In this document: positions 38,023 through 38,170 of the stretch, one piece after another
Layout of the letters: every line of letters starts with the position of its first letter
Position numbering within the stretch: the stretch's first letter is position 1
Assembly: GCA_963766075.1 (NCBI GenBank)
Contig: CAVYAN010000017.1
Span: forward strand, 64,001-128,000
DNA: 64,000 bases
Reading direction: 5' to 3'
DNA from: an uncultured cyanobacterium
GTDB taxonomy: Bacteria; Cyanobacteriota; Cyanobacteriia; Leptolyngbyales; Leptolyngbyaceae
Program-made: the position numbers and the translations under genes
The notes under the pieces: generated by a model
The model's database searches: none
What the model was told of the DNA's origin: nothing
What the model saw: only the letters and a program-made list of their open reading frames with translations

Positions 38023-38170
38023 ATTCGGATGATTGAGTCATTCAAAATAACCTATGCGAGGGGATTCGGATGATTGAGTCGTGCGAAGCAGTCAATTTAA
38101 GGGTGTTAGGATGACACAAGCATCCTATTTCACTGATTTCCGGTGATTAGGATGATTAAGTCAGTCCAAT
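38023..38170 (+). repeat. Array of four imperfect palindromic repeats with an exact 41-bp period
   Basis: Unit starts 38023 ATTCGGATGATTGAGTC, 38064 ATTCGGATGATTGAGTC, 38105 GTTAGGATGACACAAGC, 38146 ATTAGGATGATTAAGTC; each folds back on the bases that follow it. Confidence 0.85.

Follow-up and report, generated by a model that had tools for sequence, protein, structure and literature searches.

In the stretch of DNA analysed here (the window, 64,000 nucleotides of a cyanobacterial contig), an array of four 41-bp palindromic units at 38023..38177 on the + strand is almost certainly an extended attI of a cyanobacterial integron, with eight boxes of alternating orientation that end at the crossover G. 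The position of the array, the crossover, an attI core with a variable first cassette, an attC, and a geometry of fixed phase across a family of such arrays are established for this locus. Comparison across that family suggests, with a probability of about 0.7, that IntI, the integron integrase, binds the eight boxes as double-stranded DNA; seven of the boxes would be accessory, with a predicted gain in cassette capture at the core. Judged from the sequence, assignment of the window copy rests on its position, core, attC and junctions more than on its box score.

The palindromic units start at 38023, 38064, 38105 and 38146, in exact 41-bp steps (n=4), and 12 of their first 25 columns are invariant across all four, against a maximum of 6 and a mean of 3.9 in dinucleotide shuffles of 37800-38400 (n=500). 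Both register and shuffle comparison thus bear out the earlier note, made from the DNA alone, which had described four palindromic units at an exact 41-bp period. That note gave TT(C/A)GGATGA as shared by the units; the 9-mer is indeed common to all four, though it begins one base after each unit start. It occurs 48 times in the 5.05-Mb assembly, and twice within 200 bp only at the array locus and in a 93%-identical copy on another contig (C22), which lies at the contig end and stops just short of the position equivalent to 38177. The linkers had been called unique but G-rich at their ends. G-rich ends they have, but they are not featureless: each such end is the G-run that stands at -5 to -3 of boxes throughout the family, and within the fourth linker lies the GTT of the integron crossover, at 38177. 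As for the G·U pairs pointed out in the stems, all three are present, but those stems contain one G·G mismatch and two of A·G as well, and the C22 copy keeps just one of the three pairs. The array was rightly held not to be a canonical CRISPR: its units are identical at 19-29 of 41 positions, an Rfam search of the window returned no match, and the linkers carry family motifs. All told, the first description of the array stands in part, having overlooked the crossover, cassette and attC that identify the locus.

Read as boxes, the units vary considerably in quality. Forward box 1 (38023..38032, +) is divergent, does not score above 0 bits on the family matrix and takes its register from self-similarity, and reverse box 1 (38038..38047, -), placed by the 24-bp register, is degenerate here and nearer the forward box in the C22 copy. 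Forward box 2 (38064..38073, +) scores 2.5 bits and is followed by another degenerate partner placed by the same 24-bp register, reverse box 2 (38079..38088, -). Forward box 3 (38105..38114, +; 10.5 bits), reverse box 3 (38120..38129, -; 0.7 bits) and forward box 4 (38146..38155, +; 8.1 bits) complete the accessory set, the last of these lying 31 bp before the crossover, roughly the place of DR1 in the attI1 site of class 1 integrons. Only four of the eight boxes chain on the family matrix, and the resulting chain score of 17 is also reached by three two-box chance hits genome-wide. The ATGA ending of the window boxes is found in none of 374 family boxes, and no copy of this box type was detected in samples, some of them incomplete, of 60 relatives and 89 family genomes. 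A search of viral contigs for the exact array pattern gave one match, a chance one without palindromes, and a blastn comparison with plasmids gave just five 33-nt chance matches. A promoter scan returned one site, at chance level, and a -10-like TAGAAT can be read just upstream of the array at 38003-38008; from the sequence, the array may well be transcribed.

The array ends in what is expected of an integron attI, inverted L and R boxes with a G|TT crossover. The L box of the simple site (38161..38170, -; 6.0 bits) has a core almost identical to that of two other loci (L135 and L065), both of which adjoin a full-length intI, and the R box GTTATGC (38177..38183, +) places the crossover G|TT at 38177/38178. 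The L-to-R spacer is 6 nt in the window, as in 4 of 45 family loci, while 36 of the 45 have 5 nt. Further evidence comes from junction contigs, 151-nt pieces of depth 2-3 from three metagenome studies. One (run X3) equals 38095-38180 with 2 differences and a second (run X5) equals 38073-38185 with 3 differences before each passes into other sequence, the switch lying 3-8 nt from 38177, so these short contigs of low depth show different cassettes at the crossover. A third (run X2) holds the 3' part of the cassette and switches sequence after 40322, a point three bases beyond the attC G. Taken together, the three contigs indicate that both crossovers sit where the motifs predict.

Between these crossovers lies the first gene cassette (38178..40319, +; 2142 bp), whose 5' end resembles the cassette heads of two integron loci, L016 and L019. 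When 60 relatives were searched at the DNA level, two genomes gave matches, confined to the bases immediately behind the array; in L016 the equivalent bases come after an attC end, and in L019 they are preceded by an intI that is truncated and by another 41-bp palindromic array, distinct from this one. The cassette ends in an attC (40239..40325, +; crossover 40319) with R'' GCATAGC and R' GTTATAC. Its bottom strand folds at z -2.55, and R'' pairs with GTTATGC at the cassette start apart from the AAC triplet. A near-identical attC on contig C65 keeps the AAC triplet from which R'' (40239-40245) departs here, and the departure may lower excision, holding the cassette in first position. Directly behind the attC is a 240-aa ORF (40344-41066) with no clear family match, likely a second cassette gene; no obvious attC was found behind it. 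Farther on, a dispersed repeat at 41210-41390, 42170-42310 and 45000-45100, with a fragment near 37885-37915, has dozens of copies genome-wide and flanks small gene pairs, one of which gives a weak aspartyl-protease match.

The cassette encodes an AbiA-like reverse transcriptase (RT) of 637 aa (38317..40230, +). It matches the profile TIGR04499 over its full length (E 1.6e-37), at 129.5 bits against a cut-off of 250 bits, and the PADLOC AbiA profile at E 7.4e-43. It combines a YxDD motif with a HEPN R-X4-6-H motif: Y269-D272 is invariant in 33 sequences, and R593 and H600 are at least 90% conserved. No match to solved structures was found among PDB sequences, and no homologue in viral contigs. 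The gene is likely an anti-phage gene. It shares an RT domain with YVDD, a C-terminal R-X6-H and a similar length with AbiA of Lactococcus, but differs in its likely non-AUG start and in being an integron cassette, cargo of the array and not a part of it. Translation likely begins at an ATT that follows a GGAGA ribosome-binding site. Indeed, in 7 of 7 loci (window 38317-38319, L001, L002, L003, L004, L008 and L010), ATT or ATC stands in place of ATG at the conserved RT N-terminus, a few bases past a purine-rich ribosome-binding site, and such a conserved non-AUG start likely limits a toxic defence protein. Beginning instead at GTG 38548, the nearest conventional start codon, would cost 77 residues. 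Upstream of one homologue (L002:34-219), a 62-nt repeat is present three times, unrelated to the array, and an attC-like site follows that gene.

Further evidence on the nature of the array comes from other integrons. From 110 intI loci fetched, the 89 with an intI start and at least 180 nt upstream were kept and the other 21 dropped. A 16-column box matrix was trained on 60 cyanobacterial loci from other genomes, with 5 small-genome and 6 other-class loci left out (group labels inferred from kinship tags and titles). At least four boxes are present in 56 of the 60 cyanobacterial upstream regions, a count that is partly circular, as the matrix was trained on those 60, many of them kin. Among the controls, the same threshold was reached by 1 of 75 regions taken from downstream of intI and by 2 of 300 shuffles. 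None of the 5 small-genome loci reached it; 1 of the 6 other-class loci did, as did 4 of the 17 loci without a cyanobacterial label. Box chains anchored on the GTT beat all 183 shuffles in 52 of the 60 loci, and likewise in 7 of 7 platforms of the window's own genome, which lie outside the training set. With spacing left unconstrained, peaks appear at 24-25 from forward to reverse box, 15-17 from reverse to forward and 6 from the last reverse box to the GTT, with an overall period of 40-41. Box number runs from 4 to 14 with a mode of eight (24/53), the number in the window. Measured from the intI start, the crossover is 208-230 bp away in 30 of 49 loci, and the first forward (distal) box 58-76 bp away in 32 of 45. 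The earlier note had named a decayed local tandem duplication as the case that would refute it; homologous arrays, which occupy the equivalent position ahead of most cyanobacterial intI genes, rule this out.

In a quick tree built from 94 IntIs, a single clade of 67 rows (SH-aLRT 96), whose members are mostly 60-80% identical, is filled by the arrays. Adjacent rows from Chloroflexota, Nitrospinota and Spirochaetota have shorter versions, and none was found at cyanobacterial IntIs of other clades in this tree. In 22 of 45 loci the upstream region also holds a cyanobacterial LexA-like box no more than 90 nt from the intI start; among shuffles the share is 21%. Only a proteobacterial LexA motif is reported at intI in the relevant portion of PMC3108266. 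As -10 elements the boxes show only a weak gradient: 29 of the 45 distal boxes qualify, compared with 63 of the remaining 142, in counts where kin are not independent.

An adjacent divergent intI is present at 52 of the 60 other loci and on contig C41 of the same genome, but not in the window. No IntI remnant was found at 37400-38200 on the expected strand. An ATG at 37956, at the usual intI distance (221 bp), was rejected as an intI start, its 78-aa frame being unlike IntI. No cognate intI for the window box type was detected in the window, the 60 relatives or the 89 family genomes, the window's own assembly being 85% complete. A small ORF (37184..37456, -; about 89 aa, no family match) of a kind that stands at the intI end of the genome's other platforms is present, with no intI between it and the array. 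This ORF is part of a multi-copy element (37060-37751) with about 15 genome copies and a structured upstream region, which sits at the intI 3' end of platforms, often beside short tandem repeats of 18-21 bp. Through the 14 other copies of the ORF, arrays ending in GTT were located on contigs C41, C17 (at C17:164.9k), C31 (two), C65 and C10, and a genome scan added one on C37; together with the window and C22 copies the genome has nine arrays of four sequence types. Its intI genes amount to one of full length, on C41, and several 3' remnants. On three platforms, internal deletions of a similar kind have left just the 3' end of intI. Some platforms have first cassettes in common, and on C65 and C37 the same first cassette head follows arrays of different types. 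The window resembles the integrase-less platforms, or CALINs, of IntegronFinder in its attC-bounded cassette without a neighbouring intI, the full-length gene being elsewhere (C41), but differs in that the attI is retained and recognisable. It has one clear attC directly after the cassette, whereas the definition of a CALIN in the relevant part of PMC4889954 calls for two.

Evidence that IntI itself may bind the boxes comes from their sequence. The consensus, N-T-T-A-K-R-C-N-G-A, agrees at positions 2-8 with cassette-derived R boxes (58 crossovers, in which the GTT was fixed by the search and later positions were free) and with L boxes (53 loci). Applied to a fetched class 1 integron, the cyanobacterial matrix gives 7.2 bits to DR2 of attI1, 9.0 to DR1 and 4.8 to L, and the DR1-to-L spacing there is 26, against 24-25 in the array family. 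Accessory boxes are more similar to the L box of their own locus (0.45) than to those of other loci (0.35), a difference reached in 0 of 5000 permutations that did not control for kinship. Beyond close kin (pairs below 75% identity), no deep co-evolution of box sequence with IntI distance was seen (rho 0.05). Accessory boxes also carry the G-run at -5 to -3, conserved at 58-86% and absent from L and R. Phased sites for a recombinase, with the integron integrase named, had been left as an option in the earlier note, and it is this option that the evidence favours.

The parallel with attI1 is close in several respects. In intact homologues the array lies, like attI1, between the intI start and the first cassette, and both have a G|TT crossover, an inverted L/R core and core-like accessory boxes upstream; the last forward box is placed like DR1, and the matrix scores DR1 and DR2 as boxes. 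That said, attI1 has 2 accessory boxes and the array family typically 7 (3-13; seven in the window); the textbook site has half as many boxes as the eight of the window. The accessory boxes of attI1 are direct repeats, whereas those of the arrays alternate in orientation, and attI1 measures about 65 bp against about 155 bp for an array with its period of 40-41 bp and its G-runs between head-to-head boxes. Such accessory repeats are absent from most of the attI sites described in the pertinent section of PMC3146285. DR1 and DR2 bind IntI1, and attI x attC recombination is optimal only with the full four-domain site, according to the portion of PMC3518468 that treats them; the corresponding portion of PMC8946536 states that the repeats favour attI1 x attC and may be topological filters.

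By analogy, each box would take one IntI monomer, and the last reverse box and the R box, 5-6 bp apart, would make up the cleavable simple site. The reverse/forward pairs upstream are 10 bp, or one helical turn, wider and would therefore be bound but uncut, as accessory sites, and the period of 40-41 bp would set boxes of the same strand near one helix face, making bound IntI a phased array. Such an array might hold the enzyme near the core or filter the synapse, as proposed for DR1 and DR2, and on the attI1 precedent it would promote or steer the insertion of cassettes. With the distal box about 58-76 bp away from the intI start in intact loci, the array may, speculatively, also damp intI or cassette transcription. 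The window copy, with no intI beside it, would depend on an integrase supplied in trans, unless it is inactive. A bolder version, tentative and rather doubtful, is that the clade evolved an intasome-like attI, with IntI, perhaps together with a second protein on the G-runs, polymerising in phase over 8-14 boxes across Pint/Pc and coupling capture to autoregulation; integrase-less variant copies would then be extra capture sites or integrase sinks in trans.

The G-runs are also the main reason to consider that the locus is an attI region whose head-to-head palindromes (C-run, A/T centre, G-run) are bound by another dimeric protein of the host or platform, which would shape the synapse or control Pint/Pc. 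Their conservation of 58-86% in accessory boxes and absence from L, the 15-bp gap unlike the simple-site spacing of tyrosine recombinases, the small ORF that accompanies this genome's platforms, and the statement in the part of PMC8946536 concerned that chromosomal integrons can need host factors would all fit. The strongest conserved positions, however, are those of the L and R boxes, the arrays track the IntI clade and not the host, and the small ORF is also found where no array lies within the 800 bp read, leaving this an unlikely reading. Distinctly less probable is that the array has no function beyond its last unit and arose as a by-product when slippage or unequal crossing over copied an ancestral DR1-L module. 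Box number does vary from 4 to 14, the distal boxes of the window copy are degenerate, and boxes of the same strand are most alike when neighbours (identity at variable positions 0.57, n=278), as unit duplication predicts; but eight boxes is the mode, the distance from crossover to intI start is held in most of the loci measured, and the spacings of 24-25 and 15-17 persist across a clade whose IntIs have diverged as far as noted above.

The same measure bears on whether the palindromes fold. IntI recognises folded single strands at attC, and stems are possible at both palindrome centres, so the palindromes might be envisaged as attC mimics, in hairpin or cruciform form, to which IntI is recruited. 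Tail-to-tail partners, though, are identical at 0.49 of variable positions (n=156) and head-to-head partners at 0.51 (n=175), no excess over distant boxes (0.53, n=471), with 0.40 for boxes of different loci. Nor do the 53 homologous arrays show a strand bias in top-strand mismatches (G·T 139 vs A·C 132, and 229 vs 222). Neither folded strand shows a sign of selection, which argues against hairpins. Moreover, it seems that no folded form brings a pair of boxes into head-to-head position with the 5-6-nt spacing that attC has, and attI recombines as double-stranded DNA according to the relevant parts of PMC4792948 and PMC12614218, making hairpins a very improbable basis for the array. The mild lean of the earlier note toward an RNA structure finds no support in the same figures: palindromic partners resemble each other no more closely than boxes that are not adjacent, and top-strand mismatches of the G·T and A·C kinds are equal in number. 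A structured RNA, either a leader or a non-coding partner or antitoxin of the AbiA-like RT-HEPN protein, could draw on the folding of 38012-38320 (z -4.3 on the + strand, z -1.5 on the - strand), on the -10-like TAGAAT and on the upstream RNAs that other defence RTs use. Yet the array is absent from 6 of 6 loci of close RT homologues (L001-L004, L008, L010; about 60-85% identity), and a partner RNA of the DRT type was rejected on that ground; several homologue loci share about 80 bases before the gene, without the array. The X3 and X5 contigs join the array to other downstream DNA, neither an Rfam match nor a family-wide G·U bias is seen, and lactococcal AbiA is protein-primed and template-independent in the account that the relevant part of PMC11077055 gives. 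An RNA is accordingly hard to credit.

Short periodic units beside a defence gene are also a feature of CRISPR, TIGR arrays and the repeat RNAs of type III toxin-antitoxin systems. The present array differs from these in having no variable foreign spacers, in not being tied to its neighbour gene and in consisting of integrase-type boxes that end at a crossover. No paper describing such arrays was found in the main text of openly available literature, and a full-text search on cyanobacterial integrons returned no paper. The parts of the literature that treat attI sites describe attI1 as having two direct repeats and most attI sites as lacking them or as unknown (PMC4889954, PMC8946536, PMC3146285, PMC4792948, PMC3518468, PMC3108266, PMC12614218, PMC3607928, PMC11077055, bioRxiv 10.1101/2022.02.06.479319); attI sequences are unknown for most integrons and not searchable, as the section concerned of PMC4889954 puts it.

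A role for accessory boxes has so far rested on attI1 alone. If the boxes are IntI sites, a whole IntI clade now offers a regular, countable attI with natural variation in box sequence and number (4-14), which would make the question of enhancer versus topological filter directly testable. The geometry is also a usable detector, having revealed integrase-less capture sites in a genome with nine arrays and one full-length intI. At the window integron, the first cassette behind such a site is likely an anti-phage RT.
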